Assembly: GCA_000182565.2 (NCBI GenBank)
Contig: KQ257467.1
Origin: Spizellomyces punctatus DAOM BR117
Taxonomy: Eukaryota
Direction: 5' to 3' (one strand)
DNA length: 64,000 bases
The notes under the pieces are model-generated. The model was not told the origin of the DNA, did no database searches, and saw only the letters and a program-made list of their open reading frames with translations. The translations under genes and the position numbers were made by a program. Of this stretch, positions 39,674 through 64,000 are shown piece by piece; the first letter of the stretch is position 1, and every line of letters begins with the position of its first letter.

Positions 39674-41677
39674 ATGGGCAACTCGTTCGGCAAAGAAGAT
39701 ATAGACTTTAAGTCAGTTCCTTCTTGAACAATTCCGAGTAGCTTATCGGTTTTTGACATACATGCTTACCTTTGTTGTTCCTTATCCGAATAGTTGAGTT
39801 ACGGCATTTCGAGCTACTGCGATGTGTGGGGAAAGGAGCTTTCGGCAAGGTATGTTGCTTATTGAATGCCAGGTTGAAGAGCGGGGAACGCAAACAAACG
39901 CCGCCCTTTCTCTGCCAGGTCCGAATCGTTGAAAAGCGGGACACAAAAAAGCTATATGCTTTGAAATACATCAACAAACATCAGTGCATTAAGATGCGGG
40001 CAACCCCTAATATCTTTCGAGAGCGAGCTATCCTTGAAGAGATCGAACACCCTTTCGTAGTCAATTTGCGGTTTGCGTTTCAGGATGACGAGAACATGTT
40101 TATGGTGATGGATTTAATGATGGGAGGTGACCTGCGGTTTCATGTAGATCGGATGGGAGGATTTAGCGAGGATGCAATGAAGTTTATCACGATGGAACTC
40201 GTTTGCGCATTGGATTATCTGCATCGAAAATTGATTGTGCATAGAGATCTGAAACCGGACAATGTCCTACTGGATGAACGAGGTCATGTACATATCACGG
40301 ACTTTAACATTGCAGTACACTACAACACCAAGACCCTAACTTCTCAATCGGGAACATTGGCGTATATGGGTATGTACCGGTAACGAGCATGCAAAATGAC
40401 CGTCACTTTACTGAAGCGCTTGGCATTTCATATTAGCTCCAGAAGTGTTTGCTGGAAAAGGTTATAGCTGGCCGGTAGACTATTGGAGCTTGGGTGTCAT
40501 GCTGTACGAATGCCTGTTTGGAAAGCGACCTTTCCGAGGACACACCGATGACCAGCTGAAGGAAAATATTTGCCAAGGACCGATCAAGATTCCGCAAGTC
40601 AATCTCATCACCAACAAGCCGATGACCATTTCTAAAGAATGTGAGGAGTTCCTGCTCAGATTACTGGAACGTGATGTTTCTAAGCGAATAGGATGCGGGC
40701 GAATGGGGGTGGAAGAGATACAGGCGCATCCATGGTTTAGAGGGATTGATTGGGATGCCGTGGAGAGAATGAAATATCCACCACCTTTTGTACCGGACCG
40801 GGATAAGGCAAACTTTGACGCTACATACGACCTAGAGGAGTTACTCTTGGAGGACAATCCCCTAACGTATCGGCCACGAAAGAAGAAACAACAACCAAAG
40901 CAATCACCAGACAAAACACATTCAGCACCACTCTCGCAAGCGCCAGCCACTAAAAGTCGTCCACATTCCTATAACGTACTTTCGCGAATAGGGCGTGGAG
41001 GCACCAACAGCCCGAACCCTCCTGCAGAAAAGGAAAAGAAGAAGCTTTCCCAAAAGGAAAGACTACAAATGGAGCTCGATTATATTGATCAAAACTTTAA
41101 GCTATTTGATTCAAGCGTATTTGATAGATACACGGGATTTGTAAATCCTCACACTCTTCAAGTATCGGACGACGTCCCAAGTTGGGTCAAAAACCTGGAC
41201 GCCGAACTGAAGCAAGCGCAAGTTGGTAATGAGAATCTACCGCCACCCGTCCCGCCTGTGCCTTCGTCATTGCTCGGATCGACTGAGAGTTCACCAGTAC
41301 TCTCGCGGAGCAGACGAGGTAGCGCATCGCAATACAAACCCCCACCACCCCCGCTGTCCGAGAGGTTTTCAAATTCGTCTTCTCGGAGAACCAGCGCTCA
41401 AACCAATAATTTCCCACCCGCTGGGAGCGCCCCTTCCTCACAGTCTGCGCGATATAGACAGTCTCAGCATCGTCCGGATGAAATGGCGGACTTGTCAGAC
41501 TATGGTCGACGAAGACAGCCCGACGCATTCGACGTTGTGGATGCATATGCGCCTCAACGAGCCGGCTTAGTTCCCGTCGCTTCAACCTCACCATCATCAC
41601 CAAAAGCGGGTTCTCCCCCGCCACAGGGCACATCGCTTTCGTCGAGATCTGCCCGTTTTAGGAGAGGCAGTAGATAG
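39674..41677 (+). CDS. AGC-group Ser/Thr kinase, YANK/STK32 family, with a disordered Ser/Pro-rich tail
   Basis: HFELLRCVGKGAFGKV, YALKYINK, HRDLKPDNVLL, the family-typical DFNIA in place of DFG, SGTLAYMAPE and NFDATYDLEELLLEDNPL. N-terminus MGNSFGK resembles a myristoylation site. Confidence 0.92.
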
Positions 41678-42558: not shown

Positions 42559-45500
42559 ATGTTCTATGGAGGTTTCGGCGAGCGAAGCTCTAATAAGGAA
42601 AATGGGCGTCCTCCGTCGCGTGGAGGCAGCGGGGGAGATCATCACACTGTGAAGGTGATGGGCGTACGTACAGACGACGTCGACATTCTGAGGAAGGAGC
42701 TCCACAAACTACGTAAGTATGAAATATGGGAATGCCAATCACTACGCGTAGCTGCGAATACACATTCGCTGAACTTGATATCCTTGTCTCTTTATCGACC
42801 GTAGAGAACCGCGTAAACGAGCTGGAGACGCAAAAGAACAAAGCTGAGAATTTGCTTGACAAAAAGGCGAGGGATTGTGACGAACTACAGAAGCAGGTAA
42901 CATCATTGTTAAAAATACGACACATGGACCCCTTCTAAGCGAAAACTGGCACAGAATGCCGAAACGCAAAAGAAGAATGGAATACTTGAGAATGAGAAAG
43001 CCAGGGTCGAACAGGTATCCAACTGGGGCACAGCGCGACTCTCATTCTCCCGTAGCTAACATATTAGACATTGTCACAGCTAAGAAACCAGTTGCAAATT
43101 AAGCACGACAATGCAAACCTTCAGTGGACGGCAGAAAAAAAAGAATTGCTTGCAGGTACGTTATTCCGCTGACCTGATCTGAAAGAATCCAGTACTTAAT
43201 ACATCGGGCATCGTTACATTGCAGCCAAAGATAACCTGAAGCGTGAAAATGGTGAACTTCAGCGTCGAAATGACCAACTCGAAAGGCAAAAGGTAGAACG
43301 AAATGTTGGCTCCAAGTCCTTGGAGGGCGCTCGAAGCCCTGCTCCAGAGTCTCAAGTAAGCTGCTGGCGACAGTAGATCTGTTGACGCGAGGATCAAAAT
43401 TAAATTAGATATCGTAGGTCGCAGGCGGCTCTTCCATTCCACTGCCAGCATCCAGTGGAGGACGATTCTTTCGTGGAAGCCGCTTACCAGCACCGATGTC
43501 ACCCATGGCGACTAGCGCGGGTACTGCCTTCCAGAGCGAAAACATAGCCCTAAAGCGGCAAATCAACAACTTGGAAACAACCAAGATTAACTTAGAAAAC
43601 AAGGTGTTACATTTGGAGAAGCAGCTGAAGGCATCAGAATTCAAGCTGAAGGAAGTAGAGGTGGAGCAAAAGCACATTGTCGATGACTTACAAAGTCAGC
43701 TCGATGAAGAGAAGACAAAATGTGTTAAACTCAAGAGAGAATATGAATCGCAGCTGATAGACGCCCAAAAGACACTGATGAAAGTTCAGAACGAGGTTCG
43801 AGAGAAGGAGGCTGAGGTTACAGGAATAAAAGACCAAAAAGAGGCATTTAAGCAAATGATCGATACTTTGGAGGCCAAATGTCAAGACCTGGAGGCCGAG
43901 AAAGAAAAGCTCGCGGCCGATATCAAACGCATTGTTGTCGAAAAGGATAACATTCATGCAGAGTATACGGCGGAAAAAGGCACCCTCCTCGAGCAAGTCG
44001 CAACCCTTGAAGTTTCCCTCGAAGCTGCCAAAAGCCATGCCGATCAATTCTGTACCCATGCGAGTATTGACTCGGCCGCTGTCGATCAATTGCGAGAAGA
44101 CAACCAGACGCTGCGTCAGCAAATCGAGGAGATGACTGCGTACAAAGCCGAACACGAAGCTGCTGCTAAGCTACAGAAAGAGACTAGTCAATCACTCGAG
44201 GAGATGAGAACTAAGCATGAGCAGATGCTTGTACATATCGAACAGCTTGAAAAGGAGCGGGAAGCTCATAAAGATGAAATTTCTACCTTGCGCGAACGGT
44301 TGGCAGCAAGCGAAACACAGAAAAGTAGTGTGGACGAGGAGCTCCATGCAACGAAACAAATGATTCAGGAGCTTGAGCAACAGCGTGAGCAGCTCTCAAA
44401 AAGTATTCCTGAAATGGAAGATCAGCTCAGAAGTCTGAAGGACGAGTTGGGAGCCAAATGTGGCATTATTATGGACTTGGAACTACTTAACGAAGAGCTT
44501 CGGGGACAAACAGAACGCGCTGAGCAGGTGGCCACGGCGGAGACTGAATTCAGGAAGCAGTTAGAGTTGGCGGTTGCGGAGGCGAAGGATAAGCAGATGC
44601 AGGCTGAAAACCATCTGGCTAGCGTCGAAATCGGCGCAGCCGAGAACGCCGTGCGCTTGGAAATCGAGCAGAGTGAGCGTAAATTGGCAGCCTCCCGCCT
44701 AGCCGATCTACAAGTGAAACTCGACTCCACCGAACAAGAGGTCACATCTCTGCGGGCACAAATCGCTACACTCCAAATTCCTGCAAATGAACCAGAAGCA
44801 TTGGATGCGGACAATTTGAAAACACATCTTGGAAAAGCCCTCAAGGAACGTGATGAAAAGATCATCGAACTTGCACAGTGTCAAGCCAACTTGACGACTA
44901 GGGAAGAGGATTGCGACGAGTTGGCAACCCAAAACGAGCAGTTGCTTGATGTCATAGAGCAGAAGGAGAAGAAAATTGCAGAACTTGAAACTGCAGTGGG
45001 ATCTCTAGTTTCCATCGAAGCTATGGAAAACAAACTTGCTGAGTCAGAGAGCGTAAGGCTGAGTTTGGAACGCAGGATTGAAGGCATAGAGCAGTCTCGA
45101 CTGAATTTGCAGCAGCAACTGGATCGTGCTAGCCTGGAAAGTGAAGCTTTGGCTTTGCAAAATGAAGAACTGGTTTGCCAAGTGAAGGAACTTGAAGGTA
45201 GTCGTGTAGCCATACAAGCGCGTATAACGGAGTTAGAAATGGCTTTGGAGGGAACAGCAAACGAGCAACAAGCTGCCCGACAGCGGGTCAGCGAACTTGA
45301 CGACATGATCGCTATCCTGCAAGAGCAGGGCCAAGCCAAGGAAGAGCTGTACAACGAAGAACTTGCCCGTAACATGCAGCTTCGAGCTAACGTCAATGAA
45401 TTGACGGCGCAAGCAGAAAAGTTACGCAGCGACCTACTAGACAAAGCACAGCGTTGTGAGAAGTTTGAAAGTACACTATTGGAAGGCAGTGAGAAGGATA

Positions 45501-48500
45501 TACGTATGGGAGAAATGGAAGCTCGGATAGCACAACTGACCGATGAGAGAGATCAATCAGCTGAGCAGATGGCGATTTTCGAAAGGGAAGCAGCGGAATT
45601 GAAGGCCAGTCTCGCGGAGAAAGACACGTGTTTGGTTGAAATGGACGCTCGTATGGGACAACTGAACGCTGAAAAAGATTTTGCAGCCGAACAGATGGCC
45701 AACCTCGAAAAGGAAACTATTGAATTGAAGGCTAGTCTCGCGGAGAAAGACACGTGTTTGGTTGAAATGGACGCTCGTATGGGACAACTGAACGCTGAAA
45801 AAGATTTTGCAGCCGAACAGATGGCGAACCTTGAAAAGGAAACTACTGAATTGAAGGCTAGTATCGCGGAGAAAGAAACTTGTCTCAAAGAAATGGACGC
45901 TCGTATGGGACAACTGAACGCCGAAAAAGACCGTGCAGTGGAACAGATGGCGATACTCGAAAAGGAAGTTACTGAATTGAAGGCCAGTCTCGCGGAGAAA
46001 GATGTGCACCTGGAAGAAATGGGCGCTCGTTTCACACAACTCAACGTCGAAAAGATTAGTGCCACGGAACAAATGGCGATTCTCGGGAAGGAAGTTATTG
46101 AATTGAAGGCTGGTTTCGCGGAGAAAGAGACGCGCCAAGAAGAAATGGACAGTCATATCGCAGAACTGAACGCCGAAAAAGACCGTGCAGCAGAACAGAT
46201 GGCGATTCTGGAAAAGGAAGCTACTGAATTGAAGGCTAGTCTCGCGAAGAAAGATGTCCACCTGGAAGAAATGGACGCTCGTATCGCAGAACTGAAAGCC
46301 GAAAAAGACCATGCAGCTGAACAGATAGCAAACCTCGAAAAGGAAGCTACTGAATTGAAGGGGAGTCTTGCGGAGAAAGACGTGTACCTAGAAGAAATGG
46401 AGACTCGTATCGGACAACTCGATGCCGAAAAGGATAGTGCCACGGAGCAAATGGCGATCCTCGAAAGGGAAACTCCACAGCTGAAGGCTGATCTCGCGGA
46501 AAAGGAGGTGCGTTTAGGAGAAATGGAAGCTTTTATTCGGAAACTAAGTGAGGAGAAGGAAGTGGGAGTTGAACAAATGGCAGTCATGGAAAGGGACGCC
46601 ACAGTCATGAAGGCTGATCTCGCGGAGAAGGAGGTGCGTTTTAGGGAGAAATGGAAGGTCTGATTGGAAAACTGAGCGAGAGAGGATACTGCACTGAGCA
46701 GATCGCGATACTCGAAAGGGAAACTACAGCATTGAAGGCTGGTTTCGCGGAGAAGGATGCGCGTTTAGGAGAAATGGAAGATTTTATTCGGACGCTAAGC
46801 CAGGAGAAAGAGCTGGCAGCTGAGCAGATGGCAATGATGGAAAGGGACGCCACGATTTTGAAGGCGGATCTTGCGGAGAAGGAGGTGTGTTTAGGAGAAA
46901 TGGAAGGTCTGATTGGAAAACTGAGCGAGGAGAAGAACGAAAGGGAGCAGACCCTCGAAAAGGAGAGACGACGGGCGGAGACTGCGGAAGCCGAGAACCA
47001 GAGTATAGTTCGCCAACGTGACGATCTGCAGGTCCTTGTGGCTGATCTAGAGGTTGTCTGCGCTGCACTGAGAAATCAAGTCACGAATCTTGAATTTGAG
47101 AAGGATGAGATCAATGCTAACTTGCATTGCGAACATGAAGAATCCATCATTAACCAGCAGAAGTTGCGCGAAGCAGAGGAAATGGAGAAAGCCTTACGAG
47201 CGGCACTAGAGCAAGGGCACAAGGAACTCGGAGCTGCAATACAATTAAAGGAAGCAGCCGAACATGCTCTGCGTCTTGCTCTAGAGGAAAAAGAAGATGG
47301 CCTCGCTGCGGCTCTCAAAGAGAAGACGATCGCAGAAGCAAGTTTGCGTTCGGCGCTGGAGGAGAAAGATCAGGTGCTACGTCATATTGATATCCTTGGC
47401 GGACAATTAAAAGACAAAGTACAGGAGATGGAGGATTTGAGTAATCAGCTTCGCCAGCATGGGCAGAAATCTGTCGAACTACTGGAACGACTGGAGGAGC
47501 TTGAGACACTGAATGCTCGGTTAGAAGAGGATAAAATTGGTCTGTCGGATATCCTCGACCGTCAGATTGTAGACAATGAAACTTTGCAAGAAGAGAACGC
47601 AAGACTACAGACAGAGTTACATCGTATGGATGAAAACGACTCAAAGGAGTTGGATGAGCTACGCGAAAAATGTACTAGAGCAGAAGAGGAGACCGAAGAA
47701 ATGAGGGTAACCATTGATAGACTTCGCTGTCGGCTGAAGGAGGTAGAAGAAAAACTGAAAGATCAGGAAAGACGCCTGCTAGAAGTCCAAGGGGAGAGAC
47801 AGAGCATGGAAAACCAGAATGACATACTTGAATCTGAAATCTTGGAACTACGGGCAAAATGTGACGAGCTTGCAGGCGAGTTGGCCGAGGAAATAGAAGG
47901 TGGACAGGTCACAGCGCAGAAACTCGCGGACACGTTGGCTAAATTAAGTGAGATGGAAGCAAATATGGAAAGCTACCGTCAACGCCTGGAAGCACCAGCG
48001 AGTCCAAAGCAGCCAAGCAAAGATGACCACACCATCGCACCTACACACGTTGAGGTAACCTCACCGGACCTGGCTGAAATCGAAAACTTGTTGGAGATGG
48101 TCCGAACTCTCACCAGCGAACGAGACGAAGCTCTGCAAGCTCATGAAAACTTGGTCAAAGAGCGAGATGAAGCGTTCCAGAAGATGCACACTGCGTTGGC
48201 GGTTACCCACGAGGAAGTGTTCCAAGGCGGATTACAGCTGATTTTGCAGCAGCTTGAGGACGTCCGGCAGCTTGCTGCGAGCAAAGAAAATGACGTGCAG
48301 GAAAAATATGTTTTATTGGATGCCAAGCTTGTGGAACTGGAGAACGCACACCGCGCGCTTGGGGAAGGGGTAATTGTGCAGCAACTTGAGAGATTGATTA
48401 AGGAGAAAGAAGCAGAAATAGAAGATCTTCGAAAGGACGCTGAATCGAAAATCGAGCAAATGGAAACCTCCCACAGTACGGCGTTGTGCACCGTGAATAA

Positions 48501-49881
48501 ACAGCTGGAGGATACAACGTGCAGGATGGAGGAGAAGGAATCAGAAATACAGCGCTTGCAACAGGAGCTGGACTCGTTGAAGGAAGCGACAGAGCAGATG
48601 ATGGCACTTACCCAGAAATTGGAAGACGCCCAGATAGCTATTGCTGAGAAGGAGGCGATGCTGCAAGCGTTACAAGACGAAGTGGACACCTTGAAGAAAC
48701 AAGCTGCGCAGAGGGTAGAACTCGATCAGCGACAGGTGGAACTTGCGGACCAGCTGGAAGGTGCTCGGGCGACGATTGCCACAAAAGAGGCGATGCTACA
48801 AGAGCTGCAAACGGAGCTCGACTGCCTCCAGAAAGAGGTTGCGCAAAAGAACGAACTTGCTGAGCAGCTGGTCAAAGTTAACACCATGGTTGACGAGAAA
48901 CAGTTGAAACTGCAAGAGCTGCAAGAACGTTTGGACAATGCGAGTGCACGATGCGGACGAAGGAGGATGAGCTGGCTGCCATGATCCAGGANNNNNNNNN
49001 NNNNNNNNNNNNNNNNNNNNNNNNNNNNNNNNNNNNNNNNNNNNNNNNNNNNNNNNNNNNNNNNNNNNNNNNNNNNNNNNNNNNNNNNNNNNNNNNNNNN
49101 NNNNNNNNNNNNNNNNNNNNNNNNNNNNNNNNNNNNNNNNNNNNNNNNNNNNNNNNNNNNNNNNNNNNNNNNNNNNNNNNNNNNNNNNNNNNNNNNNNNN
49201 NNNNNNNNNNNNNNNNNNNNNNNNNNNNNNNNNNNNNNNNNNNNNNNNNNNNNNNNNNNNNNNNNNNNNNNNNNNNNNNNNNNNNNNNNNNNNNNNNNNN
49301 NNNNNNNNNNNNNNNNNNNNNNNNNNNNNNNNNNNNNNNNNNNNNNNNNNNNNNNNNNNNNNNNNNNNNNNNNNNNNNNNNNNNNNNNNNNNNNNNNNNN
49401 NNNNNNNNNNNNNNNNNNNNNNNNNNNNNNNNNNNNNNNNNNNNNNNNNNNNNNNNNNNNNNNNNNNNNNNNNNNNNNNNNNNNNNNNNNNNNNNNNNNN
49501 NNNNNNNNNNNNNNNNNNNNNNNNNNNNNNNNNNNNNNNNNNNNNNNNNNNNNNNNNNNNNNNNNNNNNNNNNNNNNNNNNNNNNNNNNNNNNNNNNNNN
49601 NNNNNNNNNNNNNNNNNNNNNNNNNNNNNNNNNNNNNNNNNNNNNNNNNNNNNNNNNNNNNNNNNNNNNNNNNNNNNNNNNNNNNNNNNNNNNNNNNNNN
49701 NNNNNNNNNNNNNNNNNNNNNNNNNNNNNNNNNNNNNNNNNNNNNNNNNNNNNNNNNNNNNNNNNNNNNNNNNNNNNNNNNNNNNNNNNNNNNNNNNNNN
49801 NNNNNNNNNNNNNNNNNNGCACAAGAGAATAATGAGCAAGCGCACAACAGTGAGATATCACTTGTAAAATTATGTAAATAG
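42559..49881 (+). CDS. Very large acidic coiled-coil protein (about 2,300 aa if the gap is coding); start and end uncertain; apparent frameshifts near 46640 and 48950
   Basis: Four short 5' exons splice in frame into ORF 43496-46663, followed by ORF 46651-48984, with continuous heptad-like E/K/L/Q composition. A post-gap frame AQENNEQAHNSEISLVKLCK* ends at 49881. Confidence 0.7.
45490..46935 (+). repeat. Coding tandem array with a 126-bp (42-aa, six-heptad) unit, about 11 copies
   Basis: Unit approximately EQMAILEKEATELKASLAEKDVxLEEMDARIAELNAEKDxAA; gaacagatgg recurs at 45689 and 45815 (spacing 126). Confidence 0.93.
48992..49818. other. Assembly gap (827 N)
   Basis: Run of N. Confidence 1.
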
Positions 49882-50246
49882 TTAATATATATAGTATATT
49901 CCCATCGTCAAACACATTCTTGTCGTTGTGCCATTCATCATCCGACCTTGTGAAATATCGCGGGCTGGTGTGATAACGTAAGAATCATTTAGACCATCTC
50001 GGATGCAATATGCCTTTAAAAGGATAATGATCGCTGTAATAGATCTGCTGTGGAAGATGACTCCACGGGGGGCTTGGTTGGTTCGCCAGCTGCAAATTGA
50101 CAGGGTCGGTTTTGAAATTCGAAAGGCGCTGCCCCCACCGCCCACCACCTGGATGCCCAGTCGGGGGTAGCCAAGTTATCTACTGTTTGCAACAGGGTAC
50201 ACGCCCATGCGGACCTCTGTCGACGAACGTTACTCGCCCTGAATCA

Positions 50247-51836
50247 ATGACGACTTCAACGGCTACAGTGGTGATACCCGACTCTGCTTCGAAGCAACCA
50301 CGACATGATTCTTCAACTTCGAGCCCACCTTCAAACTCGTCACAACCGAATGCAGTTCAGAAATGCAATGGGGTAAACGATACTGACTCACACCCCACCA
50401 AGCGCCAGAGCCGTCGCCGCAAATACCATTATCTAAAGATTTCAATTTCTCCTCCTGTCCGCGGAGCGTTACCTGGATATGACGGTGATCGAAGGGTCGA
50501 ATGGGCCGTTTGTGATGGCTCGTCGTCGCTGGTCGACGCCGCTGAAAAGACAAGAGAAGCTCTCGTGACCCTTCGTACATTTTGGAACGAGCTCGCGCCT
50601 GAGGAACTGAATTTTGAGGAATTCGCGTGGTGCGTATTTGGGGAGGATTTGCATGACAGTGTCAAAAACGGTGATGATTGGGATGGAGAGGATTTGACTC
50701 CTAAAATGGCTGCGCGACTGGCTGGACACAATAGTGCATTGTCGGGGTTTTTAGCGGACGTGAGAGATTGGGATGCTTTTAGACTAATGGTTAGGCGGCG
50801 AGCTGGGAGGATGCCAATGAGCTGGGCGACACGCGGGCGGGCTGTCCAGCAGGGAGGAGCACAACATCGGGATGAAAGTAGTGATTCCGCCGTATCATCA
50901 TCATCTTCCGACAACAATGGATCTGCCGATAGGATGCTTTCAATACGGGAAGAAGCAGTGAAACTGCTTGCGTCTGAGGCATTTATGATGGTATTGGCGG
51001 AAAAAGAGGCCCAATGGGATGCAGAGAGGGCGGAACTGGAGAACGCGCTTGCGAATGCGGAAGGAAAAGTGCAAAGAATCGTGCATTCCATAACGGGAAC
51101 GTTGGGGGAGATGATTATACCACAGTCCTCAGCGCGTCCACGTCAGCGGAGACAGTATTTCCCGGATACAGTTTCTAGTGGCTACGAGGTCTTGGTACCC
51201 CCAAGTCATTATCAACCTTCTACATCGAGTAGACGAAACCGAAAGCCAAAGCGAGAGAGATCATTGCCCAAGAAGGTTAGTTTCGATCAAGATGCTATTC
51301 GACGTGACGAGGGAAAGATTCGACTGCGTGTGGCGTTAGAGGATGTGTGGGGGGATATTGCCGGAGCACGCAGCGCCTCTGAGGATGACGACGAGTCTGA
51401 TTGCGATTCCAACAGTGAGGAAAATGTTTCTGGGAATCTGGGCCATCTTTGGGAGAAGGTTGCTGCGGCATTGGATGAGGATAATGCCGAGATTACTTCC
51501 AAGTCGACGCCACCGGAGAACCCCAGCGTGATGAACGGGAGACGTGCTGGCACTTCTACACAAGGGCTGTACAAGCTGGATAATTCCGCCTTCATTTCTA
51601 CAACGCGTAACAATGTAACGGAAGAGCCTGGCAGTCATGACCTCGATAAGACACGCACCCCATCAACGCTAGCCGATTTTTTGAAACCGATTGCAAAATC
51701 GCGAGCAAGCGCGGATCGAGGTGGAGGACCTGATGCAAAACTGGGCAATACAGACGGACATTTAAAAAATGGGTCTTTCAGCAAGAAGCTTGGAAATCTG
51801 TTGAGACGGAGGTTGTCAAAGGAAACATTGCAATAA
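50247..51836 (+). CDS. Intronless hypothetical protein: possible Ras-association/ubiquitin-like domain, short coiled coil and KKVSF (RVxF) motif
   Basis: About 529-codon ORF from ATG 50247 with protein-like composition; domain guesses come from pattern reading only. Confidence 0.75.
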   Translation: MTTSTATVVIPDSASKQPRHDSSTSSPPSNSSQPNAVQKCNGVNDTDSHPTKRQSRRRKYHYLKISISPPVRGALPGYDGDRRVEWAVCDGSSSLVDAAEKTREALVTLRTFWNELAPEELNFEEFAWCVFGEDLHDSVKNGDDWDGEDLTPKMAARLAGHNSALSGFLADVRDWDAFRLMVRRRAGRMPMSWATRGRAVQQGGAQHRDESSDSAVSSSSSDNNGSADRMLSIREEAVKLLASEAFMMVLAEKEAQWDAERAELENALANAEGKVQRIVHSITGTLGEMIIPQSSARPRQRRQYFPDTVSSGYEVLVPPSHYQPSTSSRRNRKPKRERSLPKKVSFDQDAIRRDEGKIRLRVALEDVWGDIAGARSASEDDDESDCDSNSEENVSGNLGHLWEKVAAALDEDNAEITSKSTPPENPSVMNGRRAGTSTQGLYKLDNSAFISTTRNNVTEEPGSHDLDKTRTPSTLADFLKPIAKSRASADRGGGPDAKLGNTDGHLKNGSFSKKLGNLLRRRLSKETLQ

Positions 51837-52250: not shown

Positions 52251-54433
52251 ATGGGTGCCGCGGCATCTACCAATGGATCAACCGTCTCAACAGGACTGGT
52301 TATAGGACAGCGTTTGTGTATTGGGGGTAAAAAGGATGATAAAGCGGCAATACAAAGTGCAAAAGCTTGGAAAATGGCGTGGATGGAATACGTTCAAGCT
52401 ACAGAAGACAGTGCTGCCTCGACCGTTTTATGGGTGCAGGTACATTTATTGCCGATTTGTTAGGTACCAATCAATCGATCTCAGCTAATGTGAATGCTTT
52501 TGTTATAGTATGAATCACCATCCCAGAGTAGCGCCCTTCGAAAGTCTTTTACCAATATTGCCCATCTCACGTCTGAAGTACCAATTTTTTCACGGACACT
52601 TGTTGCATCTCTCGACGCCCATATCGCATTCCTCATCACCCTGTCCCGATCTGATGCATATGTACGCGAGCAAATGAAGTGTGAGCAAGGTATACGTCTT
52701 CTACATGCAGTGATTATATCGGCGCGCGGAATGTGGCAGAGGCTTTGCAATGTTTTTCGAGAAGCGATGGGTAACTGCCAGGTCGAGGTGGAGCGCATGG
52801 ATGGGATGCTTGGAGAGATAGACGAAGGTGCGGTAAAAGGAAAGATTGTGTCCTTGAAAAAAGGGTTGAAGAGTGTGCAGAAAGCGGCCAATGGATGGGA
52901 GAAGATGTGCAGGGAGCAAGAAAATCATTGTCGACTGCTTCGGGAGTGGTGGAGAAAAGATTGGATGGCAAGTTGACTCAACAAGACAAGGTTGTCCGTC
53001 ATCACCACTACAGTCTCACACTCTGTCCCGTGTAGGCCCATCTCAAATATGACGAAACACCGCCTACTCCTCGTTACTTGCAACTTTTAGACATGTTGCA
53101 TTCGCAGCTGGTCCTGCCCGCAACCACATTGTCTTTACGGACCTTTTCCACCAGCTTTGGCACAGTGTTACAAACGTTACGCCAACTGCTTGATCGGGAA
53201 GAAGGAAGCTTGCTCTATGTAAGGAAGGTAAAGGTGGCCGAAAAGAAGGCAGTAAGCGCAGAAAGGACGGCTAAAGCTCAAAGCCAACGCCAAGCCAAGA
53301 TTGCTCCGGAACCCTCTCTGGTGGAAACAGACGCGCAGGTTCTTCTGAATGTACCTGTACAGAAACAACGGAAGCTGTTGCGCAAAGTTCATCTATTGAA
53401 CGTTGCGCGGCATCGTCTACATGTAAATGCAAAGGATAACGCGGAATTCGCTCGCGAGCGCTTCTGGAAAGTGGAAGCTGAATTTTGGGCGTGTGCGTAC
53501 ACAGTTGCAAGTGCGTTGGAAAGCGTTTACTATGCTACTATGAAGAAAGAGGGGCTGGACCTCCCGGTATCGCAACGTCACGAGCATCTGGCGGACCCTA
53601 TCCCACCTGCAGGGCCTCCTCTTGCTTTGGCGGATCGGCCGAGGCCCGTGGGAACAAAGAGAGCGAGTCGCTGGAAACTGCCTGCGACAGATAATCAGGA
53701 AACTGCAGACGTGGACTCGGTAGTCATATTGAGTCCCATTGAGAGTCGTACGAGTGGATCATCAACATCGGCCGCAGGAATCAAGTGTGAGAGCAAGACT
53801 CTTGCTGCGGAAATTCGTTCAGAAGCCCGACGCGCGTCCGAACAAGCAGTGGACTCGTCTGCACCCGCGAAAGCGTTTGCACCGCAGAGTGATATCCTGA
53901 GCGGACACCAGAAGTTATATCCATGTGTACAGGAGGATCCACTTTTAGCATCCACTTTTCAACCTTTACCGTCACAGAGCACCAATCTGCTGCCAGAGCT
54001 AAAGGTCGCCGCCCCTTCGCCTACTGCTCCACCAGCCGCTCATTTTGACCCAAAATCGAACCTGCACTCTAGGAGCAGTGTAAAGGCGACTAGAGGACCT
54101 CCACCACCACCTCCTTTTGCACCTGGTCATGTACCTGATGCAGCTGAGATGGTCACCATGAGCGCCTTTGCAGAGGCGTGCATGTCACCTCTGGCTGTAA
54201 CGGCTGCACCTCATCCACCACCTATCCCACCGCGACCGGCGCATCAGAGGAGAAGGCTACTGAGGCATGTGGATGACAAGTTGCTTTGGAAACCAGATGA
54301 GCATGCTTTGGAGCAACGACCTTGTCCACCTCCTGTACCCCAAAAAAAGAAACCTAAACGTAAGAACCTGGATGGACTGGACATTCGGCGCACCGGCATT
54401 TCCGCCGGCTGCCATAACGAGATTTGTATATAA
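52251..54433 (+). CDS. Hypothetical helical protein, possibly with Pil1/Lsp1-like BAR segments and a Pro-rich tail; introns 52440-52508 (GT-AG) and 52968-53035 (GC-AG)
   Basis: Three exons join in frame from MGAAAST. TLRQLLDREEGSL resembles the Pil1 segment TLKSIRDIEGSV (recalled). PPPPPP and PPxPPRP motifs occur near the C-terminus. Confidence 0.7.
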
Positions 54434-55237: not shown

Positions 55238-58200
55238 ATGCCCCACGTCAAGCAGAGCAACGTAATCGGCAGTAGTTCTGCTGTAGGCACGTTGAGGGCT
55301 GCAGACCCTCAAAAGATGACCCAATCCCTTCTCCGCCCATTTCCGTCCGCGGGACTTGGGTCGAAGCATCAGCAACCTCTACCACACCTTTACCCGAGCA
55401 TAATGTCGGATCATGAACCAGGTCCGGCCGTGGATCGGGTCACGTCGATGGCGGCCAGCATTTCAACAGATCCACGAGCTTCTATCCCTTCGCCGGCACG
55501 GAGCAATATACCCACAACTCTGCCTGCAGCAGCAGCAGCAACTACAAGTGAAGCACCTCCAGAACTTCCGCCTCTCTGGATGAATGCTGTCTCCATTAAA
55601 GAATTGGCGGGGAGAATGATCCAATCTGGTTACGCGAAGCTGCAAGAGCTAACTCGAAGGTGAGTTGACGAGTTAAATGGTGCCACCGATTTTCTACACG
55701 AGCACGGCGTAATGCATTGGGTTATGTGAGGATCTAAGACAATGCAGCTGGCGGAGATCTCTCACCTGGCCGTGAAGAGGAGTGGAATTGATACCAACTT
55801 TGATAACTTATTCCTTTATATGTTCACAACAATGCAGTCTTCCCAACGCTCCCGAAATGGAACGAAAACGACAGCTGCTTGATTATGCCTTGTCACAGCG
55901 CAAGGAGTTTCAAAAATTGCTCGTGTTGACAAAATGGGGTAGACAGCACAAGGATTGGCAAAAAATGATGGTACGCTAGGAGATCCATTCAATTCCCTGC
56001 GCCGCATTTACTTATATGTGAATCATGTACTCCATTCAGAATCTTCATCGTTTTATTGATGAGCAGAATGATGCCTATCGAAGAACAGCCGATGGATTGT
56101 ACTTTATGGTTGATAAATTTAAGCGGATGGCCGAGTGAGTTTTTGTAGGCGTTAAATGATTGTCGAATTTCCAACCAATGTTGCTTTTTTTGGTCCAGAA
56201 CGCCCGTCCCTGACGTTCCTACAGCGATTGACGTGCTTGGCACAGGGCGCTATCAGCGCTTACCCAAAGTTCTGAGGGTAGGGAGATCATCGATTGGCAA
56301 CGTTATCGTTAAGAAGCTTGAAATGTACTTGTGTTCCAGGGTGTGCTTCCGCGAAAACCGTTGACGAAAGTTCAAACTCGAGAAACGTTGGTGACGCTAG
56401 ACGAGCTGATCAAAAGGCGACTGGAGTTGGAGATAATACCAGATTCCATGCGGAAAAATTTAGTTATCGGTATTGTTTCATTGGAGTACGTGTTGCCTTG
56501 GCATTTTGTGTTCTAACACATGATGGTCCTATGTAGAAAAGGGCTGCGTTACATTCAATGTCAACTTATTCAAAGTTTCCCTCACTCTTGTCGGTAAAGA
56601 TTTCAGTCTTCCGTGGCGGATTGTGCAATTGGAGACGCATGTCAAATCTGCTGACTCGTATGGAGGTAGGACAGTCGGCATGGGTAGATTGTGCACGATG
56701 CATTGTTTTCTTATTACGGCCAGTTGTAGGAGTTTGTCCTGGATTCATGGATCATCAAATGCAGTATATCTTGAATAGTGCACAGGTCTTGATTGAGCAA
56801 GTGCAGAAGCGCAAAGCAAAACCACCATTGTCAGGAGTTGTGGAGCAGCCAAAGCCAACGTCAATATCAGCATCCAAACTTCCAACTGTTACTCGGAATA
56901 CCGCGCGAAAACCAACATCAACCTCAGCATCGTCTGTCGCCGCTCAGAAGCCCACTATCCCTGCATCATCATCATCAAACTCTAAAGACAGAGGAAAGAA
57001 GGAGAAATCTAAAGATAAAGCGAAGGTTACTATGGCAAAGGACACCGTTGATGTGAAGGGAAAGGGTAACGGACCACGTGAGTCCAAGGAGAAAGGGAAA
57101 TCGACAGCGACAATGAAAGTACGGACCATGAAGAAGGATAAAGGCCAACTGCCAGCGACAGCTCCTTCGACTTCAGAAGCCGGAGAGGACACCAAGACAC
57201 GGGGTACCACGACTGCTCCCATCACCTCGACCACGCCCATCCCGACGACAACTTCCAGTGCTCAACCTGCAGAGGCAACATCTGTACACCCTGCGCACTC
57301 ATCTGCACCTAAGCCGCACAACCCATATGCAATCCTCCACTTACACGACTTCCTGCAGAAACTCACACTGCGGCTACAATTACAGATGCTGTATATGCAG
57401 GTCGGTTGGATAGAACGCTTTACCTGTCGGATAGCTACTTATTGTGTTGAAATAGGCCATCTTCCTCTCAAGAGAGCGGTGGCAGGGCGCTTTGAAAATA
57501 GAATACCAGCAAGATAAGGAAATGTTGCGCATACATTTCTGGGATCATGAAATTCCTGGACCGGATCCAAAAACGGTGCCTGCCGGATTCAGTATGTCGC
57601 AGCTGTAGTATCCTAGTCATGAGAGATACTTAACTTTCCCCTTTTCAGAGGTGCCACATCGCTACAACGTTTTGGAGATGGGTATCAAGGTGGAGGAGCC
57701 ATTGAAAGACCCAATGTTCGAGACGTGGGTCCGAAAACGGAAACGCAAGTTTTGGAAGCATGTCAACACCGATCTCGTTAGCGCGACGGTTTTTGGGGAC
57801 AAGAGCCGACCGCGACGGTATTTTGACATACGATGTTATAGCGTAATACCTGACTTGAAGGGAAATGTGCAGAAGCTCGAACTTGTAAATCCTCAAACCG
57901 AACAAAAAATACCTTTGACTTTGGTAAGATAAGGCGTTAAGACAATTTTGAATGATTTCTCTAGGAGTAACACGACACTACACTCGATGCAGGATCCATC
58001 AAATTTGGATCTTGAACGACTGCTTAATAATATCGCAGAGCTCCAATGCCGCTTCACGCTTCGCCGAATGCGAAATATCGCTCTTGGACTACCCATCAAC
58101 TCTGGATTGGCAGAGATCGGGTTTATAACGCCACCGCTTGCCGAGGGGGACAATGCTGCATCCAGCGATTTGAGTTCCATTCCTGGCGACTCCTTGCCTC

Positions 58201-61200
58201 TATCCCCCGGCCGATCCACGGGTAGTGCTTCGTCTGTATACAAGCGGAAGCGTGACGCGGATGATGTGGAAGCGTCGCGTACCATGAAGAAGGGAAAACA
58301 AGATGCGGAAGGCGTGGAAGCAGCAGTGAATAAGCGAAAACGTGAATTGGAAATGGGTCACGAACCGGAGAGGACCAGTGGAGCACAGGACGGTCGAATG
58401 TTGTTCCAAGAGCAGGATCTGGAGCTCAAAGAGTGGTTTCCTACTGGGACGGCACACGAATGCATTCAACCTGAGCTTGAAGTAACATATCGACCTCAGC
58501 GCACACTCAAAATCGTCGTGGATATCCGTACAGGAAGGATCATGGTGTTGATGGATGGTAAACGCGGACAAACGACTGGGGACATCAAGCTGATGGGCAT
58601 CGAACAAAGGCTTAACGATCATATAGAAGAAACATTAGACATTTTGATGTACATGCGTTATTCGGTAAGGAAGTGCCAGCGGTATTAGGAGACCTGCTCA
58701 CTAACTAACTCTACCATGTTTTCAGTCTTACATTGATGACATTGAGGCTTGGGCACGGCGACTGGGACTGCGGGCTTTTCGGAACACTCCGCTCAAGTCA
58801 GAAGGTCCGTTTTTGGTTTCCAATTTCTTAATGATGGTGTCGCTAATCAGGGCATTAATGTATTTCAGAGGACTCAAAGATTGCAAAATTGTTGCCTCTT
58901 CATCGAATTTACCTTCGCCTACCTGCCTTCAGCGAGGGTTGGATAGTCGTAGCTGTAGCCCCGTTGAAACAGTGGCTGACTACGTACGGTGATCGACCTG
59001 CCGGAAGTGAGGCAAAAGCACGATTGAATTTGGGCGTCAAAGAGGATGATGCAATCTTTAGAGTATGGTTTATGATGACAAAGTAAGATAAAACCTCACC
59101 AAATGTTCGCCTGTGGCCTTTATTCTAATCTGGTGTGGCGGTAGATACGAGAGACGACGAGTGAAACGATTTGGCCGCGTGAAAAAGGAGATGCTGAGAG
59201 AAATAGAATTTATCACTCCTTTGTCAGTGGACGATGTGTTTGGAAGAGAGTTTTCGGGATATCAAGGGACAAAGCCATCCCAGATGATTGTGAACGCTGA
59301 TGATGGAGAGGGATCTTTTCCTCGGAAGAAAATAAAGTCAATGGAAAGCTCCATTCCTGTCAAAGGACAAGCGGCCGAGGACGGTTCTAGCTCCGCTGAA
59401 CTGGAGTCACTTGACGAAATGTTGCACAGTTGGGACCATCTTGATTACGAAACACTGGCCAAAGTGGAAACAATTTGCAGGTATGTGATGAATGTGTTCG
59501 CTCTCGTACCGCGAGAATAAGCTTGCCTAAAAAAATCTCTCTTTTATTTTGGTAGATTGCAGTATGGCTTTACTAGAGTCACGACAGAACTGCACATGCG
59601 CCAGGTGCCATATGAATACATTCTCGGCTCTTCCTTGCCAAGGGTCACCCCAGAGGAACTTGAAATACCGGAGACGCGCATTGCCGGACGAGGAATGCGA
59701 ATCTGTATTCCAGTCGATTATTTTGCAGAAGAGGATGCTGGTTGGAGGAGCGCGATTTTACCGTTTGGAGAGTTGTACATTAGTATCGAGAGTAATGTTG
59801 TCAGAGGCGCGACATCTGGAGTTACAAAAGTGCCGAGTGCAAAGATCCCTTTTGGAACTCCAACCACGGTAAAAAGCGCCCACGTTTTGAGCGTTTGTGT
59901 TATTAAAATGCAACTGGGAGTTCCGCCCATTGAAAAGCCAGCGTCAGGTCTGTCCCCGTCTTTTGGTGGCTTTTGTAATGAAAGCAATGCTCATTCCCTT
60001 TGTTAGAGGATTTTACGTTCGAACCTCAATCACACGCAATTACTTTCCGGTTTGTGGATGTCGATGAAATTGAGGACTGTGTTGCCCTGTTATTGGCTCG
60101 TATGCGATCAATCGTTATGATGACGCGGCTTGCACAACAAAGTACGTATATGTAGTATGATTCCTTGAATGGTGCATGGGGGTGAAGTTCTGACATCTGC
60201 TTTTGTAGCTGTCCGAAATAAGAAAAGGCTCGAGAAGATTGGAGTGCAGTTTGAGCGGTTTGACCTGGTAACCCTCAGTTTGACGTTCGGAGAAGACGTT
60301 CAAATCAAGCTGTGGTGGGAGGATGGAGGGGAAGAAAAGCTGCCGGACGGGTCCATCGTGGCGAAAGATGGTACCTTTCGCACTGCGTTCATACAGCAGA
60401 AGAGCATAAACGCAACAGGTACCAAAGGAATACCGCTGGAGATGTATGAAAGAATCAAAGACTTTTTTGAGGAGCACTTGAATACCGGAAGGGACCTGGC
60501 ACAGTCGCTTTTGGTGAGTTTCGTTGTCAATAGACGAACAAGAAGCAATTGATCTCTGAATACGTTCTTGTTTAAAGATGCTCTGGCATATGGCGCCATT
60601 ACTTCGATTAGTGTGGCAAGTGGAGCAGAAACGGAATGTTGATGCGTATGCACTGGAGAGCGGCAAGCCTCTCGTGAAACTTACGGTTCACTCATTGAGT
60701 CGAGTGCAGCTGGTATATGCGGAAATCTATAGTGTCGACTTTGTACTCCACCGGTCAGGCACGTTTGCTGTTTACGACAGCGCTCGATCGTCACCCAAAA
60801 GCAAAGACGCCATGCAGGTTTATTCCGAGATCCCCCAGTTCTATGCTGGGGCTGGGCTGACCACGGTGTTGGCCAATTCGGTCTATGATGCATCCGTGCC
60901 GGCTGGAACCCGCGCGTTAGCCGTACCCTATGGCGTGTTCTTTGATGGGCCGATGCTGGAGCTTGCTGTTACTAAAGTCGATTCGCATTTGACCAATATT
61001 ACTAGTTTAATGTGGTTTAATAGTGAGGCGCAAAAGCGGCTACCGGTATGTGTACGCAACATCGTAATCTCGTTGATCTTGTTCTTCGGCTAATATTGGT
61101 GCCCCCAGGCAACTGATGTCAAATTTGACATTAAAACGGAGACCGAGTCGTCAGTGATTATTCGGACGGAGGCTAGGGCATTCTATATTTCGGTAAACGC

Positions 61201-62084
61201 CGCCAGTAAATGGAAGGTGGCGACCCTCGGTATGCGTGCGTATTAAGTGTGGTACTTTGTTGCATCTGTCATTTTGCCATGTGCTGACCTCGAGTGTTTT
61301 TCTGCATAGCTGGTGGCGAAGTCAGCGGAGAAAATATACGTAATGATCTGTGGAGAATGATGTCGGATTCTATATCGGCAAAGGTAAGAGAATGGAGATA
61401 TTGTCATGTTCCAGCGCTTCAACTGTCAACCGGGCTCAATTCCGGCACTTTCCAGCTGAATGCTTTGCCACCCGGGACCAATATGCGTCCGTTCTTGATG
61501 ACGTTTGTGGATATGCTCTTGATGTGGCGGGATCCTATGGCTGATCTTCTCAAACTGATCGAGTTTGAGAAGAAACAAGCGGATGAGAACTTGCGGTTGA
61601 CGGTAGAGTGGTGCCTCGCGATTCCACCGGATGCGCCAGAGTATCTAGGAAAGGTTGGGACTCCGGCGTTTCATGTTCAATTGGATATGCATAGGATGAG
61701 CGTTCTGGTATGTGGAAACCCCGACCATTTCAACTGTTTGCCACGTACTTGTGCTCATCCTCAGCATCCTCTTTGCTACAGTACCGGTTTACAGACACTC
61801 AAACAAATGAGAATGTCCTCTTCCCGCTCCTCTACAATGTCACGACTGGGGTCCTCTGCCCGTGGGAAGCCACTCCCGATAATGATTTTACTCAATTAAG
61901 CGAAATGAACAACCTTCTTTACCAACGCCTACGAGATGACTGGAACAAGGAAAACTTTTTGTCCTTGTTGGTAAAGATGAGCCTTACTCCAAAGATTGCC
62001 GAGTCGATGGGATTGCCTGGAAAATTGTTTCCGATTATCAAGCAGTGCTGTAAAGGCAATCTACGGTATTTGAAGAAAAAGTAG
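55238..62084 (+). CDS. MED14: Mediator subunit 14 (Rgr1); many introns
   Basis: Med14 N-domain motifs VSIKELAGRMIQSGYAKLQEL, ERKRQLLDYALSQRKEFQKLLVLTKW and PVPDVPTAIDVLGTGRYQRLP; later LHDFLQKLTLRLQLQMLYMQ. Downstream exons are joined by eye, so the 3' part is less certain. Confidence 0.85.
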
Positions 62085-62616: not shown

Positions 62617-64000
62617 CTATGACGACTCTGCAACCTTTGGCTCATCTGGTAGCACACATACTTCCGCATGCGAGACGCCCAAACCATCCACCAAACTCTC
62701 ATACACGAACCCTTCAAACGGCTTTGGACCACACACCAAAATCTTTTGCGATGCATCCGACATTGTCCTATTCCACCCCGCAACATTCAATGCCTGGTCC
62801 AAGACGGCTTGATCCAGCCTTCCCTCGTGCACGATGCACGAGTCCGAAAACGAAGCTTTTGGCGCTGGTGTGGAAAGAACCCACATGACACGAAGCTGGC
62901 CTGGATAGGCCAAGCAAGCTCCCTCAATAAGTTCCCGGCCAATACAGTCATCAACAGAATGTACACACGATAAGAGCGTCACGACGGGGAGGGCCCCACA
63001 TGGGGGATACGTGACGCCCAAGGGGAAGACACCAGACTCGTTGGTGGTTATGTTGCGCCCTTCTGCCCATCCATCATAAGAGTGTGAGTGGACGAGAACT
63101 TGATCGGAGGGAGACAGGGCGAGTTCGTCGGGGTTTTGTGGTGAGTAGGATTGGAAGACTTGGAGGGGAACTTGGGCGGGTAAAAAGAGGGTTGAAAGGA
63201 ATTGAAGGGCTTGAACGAGTGCCGAACCCGCCGAGATGTAAAGAATTTTTTCAGGAATGCTTTGTGTGGATGAGAGGGGACGAGATGGGTGTGTTGAGAA
63301 CGTGCCCACACCGCACGGTCCTCGGAACTTCCATTGTCGTTCCCCTTCTTTAGATCGAGTCAAAAAGGAGGATACGGGCCCTCCAGTGTGTTTGACAATG
63401 ATTTCAAAGGACCCCATAGATCCATTTATGGGAGTGTAGAATCTCGTGTGGATGGTGTTGTTGATGCGCGTTGAGAGCTGGATGGCCTGTCCTGGAACAA
63501 AGTGGGGTGGGTTGGTTGCAGTGTGTGGGTAGAGGATCGTGAATTTGAGCTTGTAGATGGGGGATGAGTGCGAGGGTGGAGTGAGGAGAGTCGACGATAC
63601 GAGGGCGTATCGATGGTATTGGGCTGGAATCCAGGTTGCGGATGAACCTGTGATTTCGCCCACCAGTAAGGTGGAGAGTCTTGCGAGGGCTGCGTTAGTG
63701 TGGGAATGGGTTCTCCGTGACTTTTGAATCAGCCGCCATTCCTGTTCGGTAAAGCTTGTTGAGCCGTACGTTGGTGGGGCGGCTGAGCTCGACCTCGGCG
63801 AGCTAGCCTCCATGAGCGTTTTGCGACGAGGCAAGGTCCTGACGCGGGGCAAGCTATTGTTCAAGTTGCTCTTGCCGTTTATTTCTGGAAGAACAGACGC
63901 ACGGTCGATACCGTCGCTCACATTTTCTCGCCGCAAAAACTCGTCGGGATCTACACCCGCTTCCCCAAAGTAATCGTTGGTAATGTCCGTTCCTGCCACC
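62617..64000 (-). CDS. 5'-truncated flavohaemoprotein: C-terminal part of a cytochrome b5 domain, FNR-type FAD-binding domain, and NAD(P)-binding domain with an inserted SH3 domain
   Basis: b5-like AGTDITNDYF...HSHTNAALARLSTLLVGEI; FAD domain PGQAIQL, RFYTP, FEIIVK, GPVSSFL and FRGP; NAD domain YISAGSA and ILVCGPKPF; SH3-like YSPQNPDELAL...DGWAEG...SGVFP. Confidence 0.85.
   Translation of the reverse strand, partial: VAGTDITNDYFGEAGVDPDEFLRRENVSDGIDRASVLPEINGKSNLNNSLPRVRTLPRRKTLMEASSPRSSSAAPPTYGSTSFTEQEWRLIQKSRRTHSHTNAALARLSTLLVGEITGSSATWIPAQYHRYALVSSTLLTPPSHSSPIYKLKFTILYPHTATNPPHFVPGQAIQLSTRINNTIHTRFYTPINGSMGSFEIIVKHTGGPVSSFLTRSKEGERQWKFRGPCGVGTFSTHPSRPLSSTQSIPEKILYISAGSALVQALQFLSTLFLPAQVPLQVFQSYSPQNPDELALSPSDQVLVHSHSYDGWAEGRNITTNESGVFPLGVTYPPCGALPVVTLLSCVHSVDDCIGRELIEGACLAYPGQLRVMWVLSTPAPKASFSDSCIVHEGRLDQAVLDQALNVAGWNRTMSDASQKILVCGPKPFEGFVYESLVDGLGVSHAEVCVLPDEPKVAESS

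Follow-up and report, generated by a model that had tools for sequence, protein, structure and literature searches.

The window analysed here is a stretch of 64,000 nucleotides of contig KQ257467.1 of Spizellomyces punctatus DAOM BR117 (assembly GCA_000182565.2), and the gene under study lies at its far end on the minus strand. There, a single open reading frame (ORF) runs from position 63999, where it passes off the window edge, to a stop codon at 62617–62619 and encodes 460 amino acids (aa; P0001). This segment matches the stored full-length product of 1071 aa (P0004) with 100% identity throughout its 460 aa, so the window covers no more than the C-terminal 43% of the protein and the gene extends past position 64000, as an earlier annotation made from the letters alone (hereafter the sequence-only reading) had supposed. 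We consider it probable that this segment makes up the cytosolic C-terminal portion of a single-polypeptide transmembrane redox chain of the CYBDOM type, driven by reduced nicotinamide adenine dinucleotide (phosphate) (NAD(P)H) and carrying a built-in SH3 domain. The parts of the gene inside the window are listed below; residue numbers here and in the following refer to P0004 unless P0001 is named.

63961–63999, minus strand: end of the N-terminal half of a cytochrome b5 domain, VAGTDITNDYFGE (from the translation and the Pfam Cyt-b5 match at residues 584–620)
63760–63960, minus strand: disordered linker splitting the b5 domain (residues 625–691, 67 aa), with a predicted local distance difference test (pLDDT) score below 50 in the AlphaFold2 (AF2) model
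63643–63759, minus strand: segment read as the C-terminal half of b5, EWRLIQKSRRTHSHTNAALARLSTLLVGEI, with the candidate second axial histidine H711
63307–63630, minus strand: barrel of the b5-reductase/FNR type binding flavin adenine dinucleotide (FAD), with RFYTP (63430–63444) and GGPVSSFL
63250–63306, minus strand: hinge between the FAD and NAD domains with a PxRP motif (HPSRPLS), AF2 pLDDT 61–74, PxxP in 40 of 55 aligned members
63181–63249, minus strand: first Rossmann strand and helix, with the pyrophosphate loop AGSALVQ at 63211–63231
62998–63168, minus strand: SH3 domain (residues 889–945), between Rossmann helix 1 and strand 2
62638–62997, minus strand: rest of the NAD(P)H domain including VCGPKPF, with CGP at 62725–62733
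62617–62619, minus strand: stop codon, from the translation

In the full-length product the Pfam matches follow one another in the order DOMON, Cytochrom_B561, Cyt-b5, FAD_binding_6, SH3_1 and NAD_binding_1, with the following positions and scores.

Residues 204–298: DOMON (E = 2.2e-9, 38 bits against a cut-off of 32.7)
Residues 344–476: Cytochrom_B561 (18.5 bits, under the cut-off of 23)
Residues 584–620: Cyt-b5 (E = 3e-8, covering profile positions 14–50 of 74 only)
Residues 774–841: FAD_binding_6 (E = 3.6e-7)
Residues 896–937: SH3_1 (E = 2.7e-9)
Residues 951–1043: NAD_binding_1 (17.1 bits, under its cut-off)

The AF2 model of full-length P0004, built with a 55-row alignment, had a mean pLDDT of 78.1, and its folded DOMON, b5, FAD, SH3 and NAD blocks mostly exceeded 90. 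At the N-terminus the model shows a helix, which on the basis of the model appears signal-like, followed by approximately 115 disordered residues rich in Ser, Thr and Pro.

The SH3 domain was identified by three kinds of search. The profile SH3_1 (PF00018, clan SH3) matched P0001 at aa 285–326 with E = 1.5e-9 and 37.7 bits (curated cut-off 22.9). In a phmmer search of PDB sequences with P0001, SH3 domains came out on top (JIP2, E = 6.4e-6; vinexin, 8.1e-5) and b5 reductases trailed them weakly. The isolated 64-aa segment (62986–63177, minus strand), modelled by AF2 with a 49-row alignment, reached a mean pLDDT of 92.1, and Foldseek aligned it to solved SH3 domains with template modelling (TM) scores of 0.83–0.87 and root-mean-square deviations (rmsd) of 0.9–1.2 Å; the 294 matches at E ≤ 0.001 included the fourth SH3 domain of POSH (7nzd, TM 0.83, rmsd 0.9 Å), JIP2, CIN85, Fyn and Src. 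These tests confirm that the inserted segment is a genuine SH3 domain and reject a chance SH3-like motif. The sequence-only reading had picked out SH3 hallmarks at 63008–63174, in good agreement with the boundaries found here, and had placed them behind the first strand and helix of the NAD domain with the fold resuming afterwards. The same order was seen in the full-length AF2 model, in which a strand (862–868) and a helix (869–883) are followed by the SH3 strands (889–892, 911–917, 922–927 and 932–937), then by a strand (950–957) and a helix (966–975), and finally by an alternating strand/helix fold that closes past the CGP-bearing strand (1029–1034). In this model the SH3 domain is a true insertion between the first Rossmann helix and the second strand. 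An intron or a read-through artefact as the source of the insert was excluded, because the frame is open, P0004 is identical to the window translation over 460 aa, and the insert stands in register in all 55 aligned homologues; the single intron-free frame described earlier was thus upheld.

The SH3 domain is also among the best conserved parts of the protein. Over its full length the alignment has only 12 invariant columns, and the SH3 domain accounts for three of these (G921, W922 and G934, 55/55); E903 (52/55), P937 (51/55) and Y896 (43/55) vary little. Mean pairwise identity was 0.53 for the N-terminal half of b5, 0.46 for the FAD domain, 0.40 for SH3, 0.30 for b561, and 0.25 both for the rest of the NAD domain and for DOMON, which places SH3 among the most constrained parts of the protein. 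In 11 of 13 long homologues SH3_1 or SH3_9 scored over its own cut-off, the remaining two being P0012 (17.8 and 14.1 bits) and P0014 (20.6 and 15.3 bits).

The domain that hosts the insertion belongs to a flavoreductase. FAD_binding_6 matched P0001 at aa 163–230 (E = 1.2e-7), and the two FAD-barrel signatures, RxY(S/T) and GxxS/T, are present as RFYTP and GGPVSS; in the family R797 is found in 51 of 55 members and T800 in 46. NAD_binding_1 matched P0001 at aa 340–432 with 17.3 bits, below its cut-off of 22, while the AF2 model showed alternating strands and helices over residues 950–1060, mostly with pLDDT above 90. When the full P0004 model was searched with Foldseek, b5 reductases were retrieved first, followed by flavohaemoglobin and ferredoxin-NADP reductases, the top matches being Physarum 2eix (E = 6.5e-14, TMt 0.78), human CYB5R3, yeast Cbr1 and a b5-reductase fragment of nitrate reductase. 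The TMt values of the top b5 reductases (0.69–0.78), together with the fitting order of strands and helices, support a Rossmann fold for the NAD(P)H domain. In line with these matches and with the Cyt-b5 match on P0004, the earlier assignment of the host to the b5-reductase/FNR type, placed behind a cytochrome b5, holds.

The nucleotide-binding signature is well kept in the family (G869 54/55, G871 51/55, P874 42/55; C1034 51/55, G1035 55/55, P1036 46/55), and the loop typically reads AGSGITP, GGSGLAP or GGTGITP, with Geranomyces showing the textbook GGTGITP. In the window protein it reads AGSALVQ, as the sequence-only reading had pointed out together with the intact RxYT motif (RFYTP). The alanine at position 871 is shared with only two other rows and Q874 is unique to the window protein, so that the altered GxGxxP loop is, as judged from the alignment, lineage-specific drift and not a family trait. 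These substitutions and the sub-threshold NAD_binding_1 score would suit a catalytically impaired pseudo-reductase or sensor, in which the NAD(P)H loop has decayed and the protein serves as a haem-binding or scaffold protein. We regard this as quite improbable for several reasons: the window protein retains G869, the C-G-P motif, RFYTP and each of the six candidate His haem ligands; a Gly-to-Ala exchange is mild; and the closest named relative, Phlyctochytrium arcticum P0005, has the similar loop AGSAMVA, which indicates that the change arose long ago and has persisted in a protein whose remainder is conserved.

Upstream of the reductase lies a cytochrome b5 domain that appears to be split in two. 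The HPGG haem-ligand motif with H602 (55/55) falls past the window edge, and only the end of this half is encoded in the window. It is followed by the disordered linker, behind which a conserved piece (RRTHSHT...LSTLLVGEI) carries the invariant residues R706 and H711 (both 55/55). In the AF2 model this piece forms helices at 696–709 and 713–720 and a strand at 723–727, with pLDDT of 77–87. From its conservation and its modelled fold we read it as the displaced second half of b5, and by analogy with other b5 domains H711 would be the second haem ligand; HPGG and two invariant histidines in predicted axial positions (H602 and H711) would then place the domain among the b5 cytochromes. The linker itself varied among the 55 members from 57 to 112 aa, with a mean pairwise identity of 0.20. 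In the window protein it holds the motif SLPRVR/TLPRRK and a PPTY motif (63766–63777, minus strand); across the family PPxY occurred in 6 of 55 members, PxxP in 29 of 55, and an R-x-L-P-like core in about half of the rows. The PPTY motif, which we take to be of the WW-domain type (PPxY), could presumably serve as a handle for Rsp5/Nedd4-type ligases.

The half of the protein beyond the window edge bears the features of a CYBDOM protein, that is, a DOMON domain preceding a b561 core that holds four histidines. The AF2 model contained a beta-rich DOMON block at residues 143–334 and five long helices at residues 338–525. Candidate b561 haem ligands are H344 (53/55), H376 (51/55), H417 (53/55) and H457 (53/55), and candidate DOMON ligands are M215 (46/55) and H314 (50/55), the remaining rows being mostly gaps; the Met215/His314 pair was assigned on an analogy with other DOMON and CDH cytochromes that we assume to hold. 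As predicted from these conserved residues, DOMON would bind one b haem and b561 two bis-His haems held by its four conserved histidines. The odd number of helices in the model fits an arrangement with DOMON outside and b5 and the reductase inside the cell. Given such cofactors and topology, which like the direction of electron flow are read from the sequence, cytosolic NAD(P)H would reduce FAD, FAD the tethered b5 haem, and the b5 haem the inner b561 haem; from there electrons would pass through the membrane, first to the outer b561 haem and on to the DOMON haem, which would reduce an extracellular acceptor, possibly Fe(III), Cu(II), O2 or a partner enzyme. The fused b5 and reductase would in this way do what ascorbate does as cytosolic electron donor in plant CYBDOM proteins. 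The sequence-only reading had suggested a self-contained redox enzyme, a proposal that is strengthened in the form of a putative transmembrane electron exporter; the protein is not a soluble b5 reductase, given the DOMON and b561 regions in front. Some points weigh against such a working chain. The N-terminal 611 aa of P0004 lie outside the window and are based on the stored gene model; Cytochrom_B561 stays under its Pfam cut-off in P0004; and A871 and Q874, together with the NAD_binding_1 score, could mean that nucleotide binding is weakened in the window protein.

The position of the SH3 domain bears on what it may do. In the standard Rossmann topology the loop between helix 1 and strand 2 faces away from the nucleotide/FAD cleft, and by this analogy the SH3 domain would sit on the side opposite the nucleotide/flavin cleft. 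Because the insertion loop would lie away from the cleft, a docking or regulatory module is more likely than a catalytic part. Such a module could recruit a partner with a proline motif or bind elsewhere on the same protein, and docking of an external proline-motif partner, or other regulatory docking, ranks as most likely, ahead of intramolecular tethering or gating, with dimerisation or a pure spacer last. The invariance of W922 and the near-invariance of E903 and P937 argue for a binding face that is in use. The function of the SH3 domain is nevertheless the weakest part of the overall account, and several features of the domain speak against classical ligand binding. With residues mapped to the canonical platform partly from PDB-sequence alignments and partly by correspondences that we presume to be standard, the family shows no aromatic residue at two positions: that of the first Tyr of the ALYDY motif, which is Q in the window protein, and that of the Tyr following the conserved Pro (position 940), which is V, I, A, C or K. 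In addition, the SH3 domain of the Blastocladiomycota-type branch described below has diverged so far that Pfam misses it or matches it weakly, which suggests that the role conserved in the family may not be classical PxxP binding.

The loss of two tyrosines of one proline pocket, with W922, E903, Y896 and P937 retained, would fit a half-site ligand, and such a ligand might lie on the same chain. The SH3 domain would then tether or gate the mobile b5 as a form of autoregulation instead of binding an external partner, and the internal motif could be the R-x-L-P core of the linker that splits b5 or the PxRP of the FAD–NAD hinge. An R/K-x-L-P-like core does recur in the linker of about half of the 55 rows, although a class-I-like RxLPxxP is found in only 5 of 55, and PxxP is present in the hinge of 40 of 55; the insert has, moreover, been maintained in the Blastocladiomycota-type branch despite its eroded canonical residues. 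Against this, no part of the protein is less conserved than the linker (identity 0.20), its pLDDT in the full-length model is below 50, and in the window protein the motif reads SLPRVR, with the upstream Arg missing. A predicted complex of the SH3 domain (886–946) with the linker (622–700) scored 0.02 against a mark of 0.34 and counts as evidence neither way. On balance we hold an intramolecular role to be unlikely. Still less probable is that the SH3 domain dimerises the reductase, as the SH3 domains of JIP1 and JIP2 do, or that it is a structural spacer with no ligand. JIP2 and JIP1 are among its top sequence and structure matches, entries 8rpp and 2fpe are titled as SH3 homo- or heterodimers, and two canonical tyrosines of the ligand platform are lost; yet the preference for JIP is slight (28.7 versus 25.1 bits), a TM of 0.83 is common to many SH3 domains, and the invariant surface residue W922 and near-invariant E903 and P937 again favour a binding face in use. 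Docking of an external proline-motif partner, or another regulatory docking role, stays our preferred account of the SH3 domain.

The architecture is not restricted to Spizellomyces. An exhaustive HMMER search with P0001, counted in representatives of clusters at 50% identity, retrieved 395 proteins at E ≤ 0.001, of which 114 reached E ≤ 1e-30; with more than 100 cluster representatives it is no one-off. A scan of 156 proteins with segments of P0004 revealed, as the order common to the long matches, DOMON, b561, b5N, b5C, FAD, SH3 and NAD, where b5N and b5C are the two halves of b5. Seven of the listed matches (P0034, P0040, P0055, P0066, P0071, P0136 and P0153) are unrelated multi-SH3 proteins that match in the SH3 domain only. 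Among the named matches, all SH3-bearing members belong to the Chytridiomycota or Blastocladiomycota. Of 13 long homologues, 12 are named, and these are all from Chytridiomycota and have the SH3 match at the same place; the chytrid homologues include proteins of three Phlyctochytrium species, Dinochytrium, Polyrhizophydium, Gorgonomyces, Borealophlyctis, Geranomyces, Polychytrium and Batrachochytrium salamandrivorans (two proteins), and S. punctatus SPPG_02277 is also a member of the family. All 13 long homologues matched an SH3 family and 12 FAD_binding_6 (P0016 lacks a FAD_binding_6 row), with b5 ahead of both; b561 was detected in 11 of 13 at E ≤ 0.1 and over its cut-off in four (P0011, P0012, P0013 and P0015). 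The named members carry automatic names only, nearly all of the long homologues being annotated as hypothetical proteins and Borealophlyctis P0012 as an S-methyl-5-thioribose-1-phosphate isomerase. In two very long proteins the module is preceded by a Peptidase_S10 domain (P0043) or a DFP domain (P0075), where wrongly joined gene models are a more probable explanation than true fusions. In a quick tree of 60 rows, from which P0018 was dropped as it has no b5N match, the window protein was sister to P. arcticum within a 42-row group that holds all named chytrid sequences; the tree was rooted at its midpoint and contains Dentiscutata as a very long branch, and no order of events was drawn from it.

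Some relatives carry a further domain at the N-terminus. In P0053, P0069, P0072, P0093 and P0157–P0159 an animal-type haem peroxidase (An_peroxidase, E 1e-84 to 1e-109) precedes DOMON, b561, b5 and FAD. P0093 and P0157–P0159 come from the Blastocladiomycota Sorochytrium milnesiophthora and Blastocladiella emersonii and bear the automatic name 'DOMON domain-containing protein frrs1L'. In this peroxidase-fused, Blastocladiomycota-type branch the insert is in register and its G-W pair is kept, with SH3_9 matching at E of about 0.004–0.006 at best. The peroxidase-fused relatives represent a DUOX-like architecture assembled from non-NOX parts, and the acceptor of the chain in these proteins would be the fused haem peroxidase. 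The chain might turn O2 into an oxidant for the peroxidase to use, as DUOX does, or it might re-reduce the peroxidase, which would make the whole an extracellular NAD(P)H peroxidase. A relative from the Glomeromycota, Dentiscutata erythropus P0161, combines peroxidase, DOMON, split b5, FAD and NAD domains and has no SH3 domain: its NAD_binding_1 match is unbroken over profile positions 1–87, and the sequence passes directly from the GGTGITP helix to the next strand.

Each module of the protein has known counterparts. CYBDOM proteins (HYP1/CRR) share with it an extracellular DOMON domain ahead of a b561 membrane domain in which four histidines are conserved. For Arabidopsis HYP1, PMC10784544 describes electron transport across the plasma membrane, in which three b haems pass electrons from cytosolic ascorbate to Fe(III) or Cu(II). 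In contrast to these proteins, which according to the same source use free cytosolic ascorbate, the window protein has a fused b5 and an NAD(P)H flavoreductase with SH3, which suggests from the domain content NAD(P)H as the cytosolic donor, and its b561 scores under the Pfam cut-off. b5 reductases and their fusions with b5 (the C-terminal half of nitrate reductase, Cyb5R4/Ncb5or) resemble it in the FAD_binding_6 and NAD_binding_1-type fold, in the b5 fused upstream, in the best structural matches (2eix, CYB5R3, Cbr1, 5yly and 1cnf) and in the RxYT, GxxS and CGP motifs. It differs from them in the SH3 domain after Rossmann helix 1, in the b5 split by a linker, in the attachment to a b561 membrane domain and in an identity to solved b5 reductases of only 15–19%. 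The nearest clusters in the ESM Atlas, nitrate reductase and Cyb5R4, scored 0.79–0.85, which is below 0.9 and serves as a lead only. The SH3 domain agrees with its canonical counterparts (POSH, JIP1/2, CIN85, vinexin, Fyn and Src) in its fold, and of their typical residues the family conserves the Trp, the RT-loop acid, one Tyr of ALYDY and the Pro. It differs in that it is built into a loop of an enzyme and does not stand alone in an adaptor, and in the loss of two platform tyrosines.

A further comparison is with the NOX/FRE enzymes, in which, as is predicted for the window protein, one chain passes electrons from cytosolic NAD(P)H via FAD and haems across the membrane, and the peroxidase-fused relatives mirror DUOX. 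The membrane parts are non-homologous (b561 versus Ferric_reduct), the reductase is of the FAD_binding_6/NAD_binding_1 and not the FAD_binding_8/NAD_binding_6 type, and the window protein would have additional b5 and DOMON haems. Membership in the NOX/FRE family was rejected, as Ferric_reduct, FAD_binding_8 and NAD_binding_6 were not reported on P0004 at E ≤ 0.1; stray sub-threshold NAD_binding_6 matches were seen in the relatives P0012 and P0100. The resemblance would accordingly be one of functional analogy only. The sequence-only reading had stated that in NADPH-oxidase systems the SH3 domains reside on separate regulatory subunits, a rule to which two NOX homologues of Naegleria gruberi form a published exception: PMC3591440 reports an SH3 domain (PF00018) within their NADPH-binding domain, and its authors suggested that this domain binds a proline-rich regulator. 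Among Creative Commons-licensed PMC and bioRxiv full texts, we found no description of a fusion of b561, b5 and b5 reductase, of such peroxidase fusions, or of SPPG_02277, consistent with the earlier supposition that the architecture had not been characterised. A term search of the main text of a 2022 NOX survey that sampled chytrids (PMC9421330) returned mention of neither SH3 nor b561. An SH3 domain within an NADPH-binding domain therefore has a published precedent. The family described here, a variant of CYBDOM, b5/b5-reductase and SH3-bearing NOX proteins for which these texts gave no characterisation, is conserved among zoosporic fungi.

A broader proposal, which we put forward tentatively and with less confidence than the chain itself, is that Chytridiomycota and Blastocladiomycota possess transmembrane electron exporters of a kind not described before, each a single chain driven by NAD(P)H, equipped with FAD and four haems and assembled from CYBDOM, b5 and b5-reductase parts. 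They would be convergent counterparts of NOX/FRE, with the peroxidase fusions as counterparts of DUOX, and would be controlled via the built-in SH3 domain by a regulator with a proline motif. Animal NOX enzymes are subject to phox-type SH3 regulation; in the parallel proposed here the SH3 domain would sit on the catalytic chain itself.

The remainder of the window contains genes that fit a flagellated fungus. Three adjoining long frames of 305, 826 and 2950 aa occupy 10720–22992 on the minus strand; the 826- and 2950-aa frames contain many Ig-like domains of the HYDIN/CFAP65/ASH type and the 305-aa frame is without a Pfam match, and together they look like a giant HYDIN/CFAP65-like gene of the flagellar central-apparatus type. 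Three further genes are ordinary housekeeping neighbours.

813–2180, plus strand: phosphofructokinase (Pfam, E = 8.5e-97)
28197–29594, plus strand: SUZ-domain protein (Pfam)
40415–41677, plus strand: C-terminal lobe of a protein kinase (Pfam)

A tandem repeat of 126 bp (42 codons) spans 45507–46935 in about 10 copies with 75–80% matches and lies within two long plus-strand frames (43418–46663 and 46645–48984), of which the first has only a weak, sub-threshold match to Fez1 (PF06818); the repeat and a marked GC/AT skew suggest a repetitive structural protein. A run of N marking an assembly gap extends from 48993 to at least 49500 and probably accounts for six spurious overlapping ORFs on both strands (48726–49984) and for the low GC content there. 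The long frames at 50061–51836, 53036–54433, 56537–57517, 57933–58688 and 60560–62084 had no Pfam match.

If the proposed chain works, it would be a second, independent eukaryotic build of an NAD(P)H-powered transmembrane reductase, in which a tethered b5 and b5 reductase pass electrons into a wire of b561 and DOMON haems instead of the ferric-reductase domain of NOX/FRE, and it would mean that a CYBDOM core need not rely on ascorbate. With an SH3 domain fixed in the Rossmann fold throughout the family, these proteins offer a natural case of domain insertion and of how docking modules join redox enzymes, for which the Glomeromycota relative lacking SH3 (P0161) provides a natural comparison. 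Since S. punctatus, which carries the orthologue SPPG_02277, is reported to be genetically transformable (PMC7213984), the question is accessible to experiment. The presence of a member in the amphibian pathogen B. salamandrivorans indicates that the family may also bear on metal acquisition or extracellular redox reactions at the host interface.

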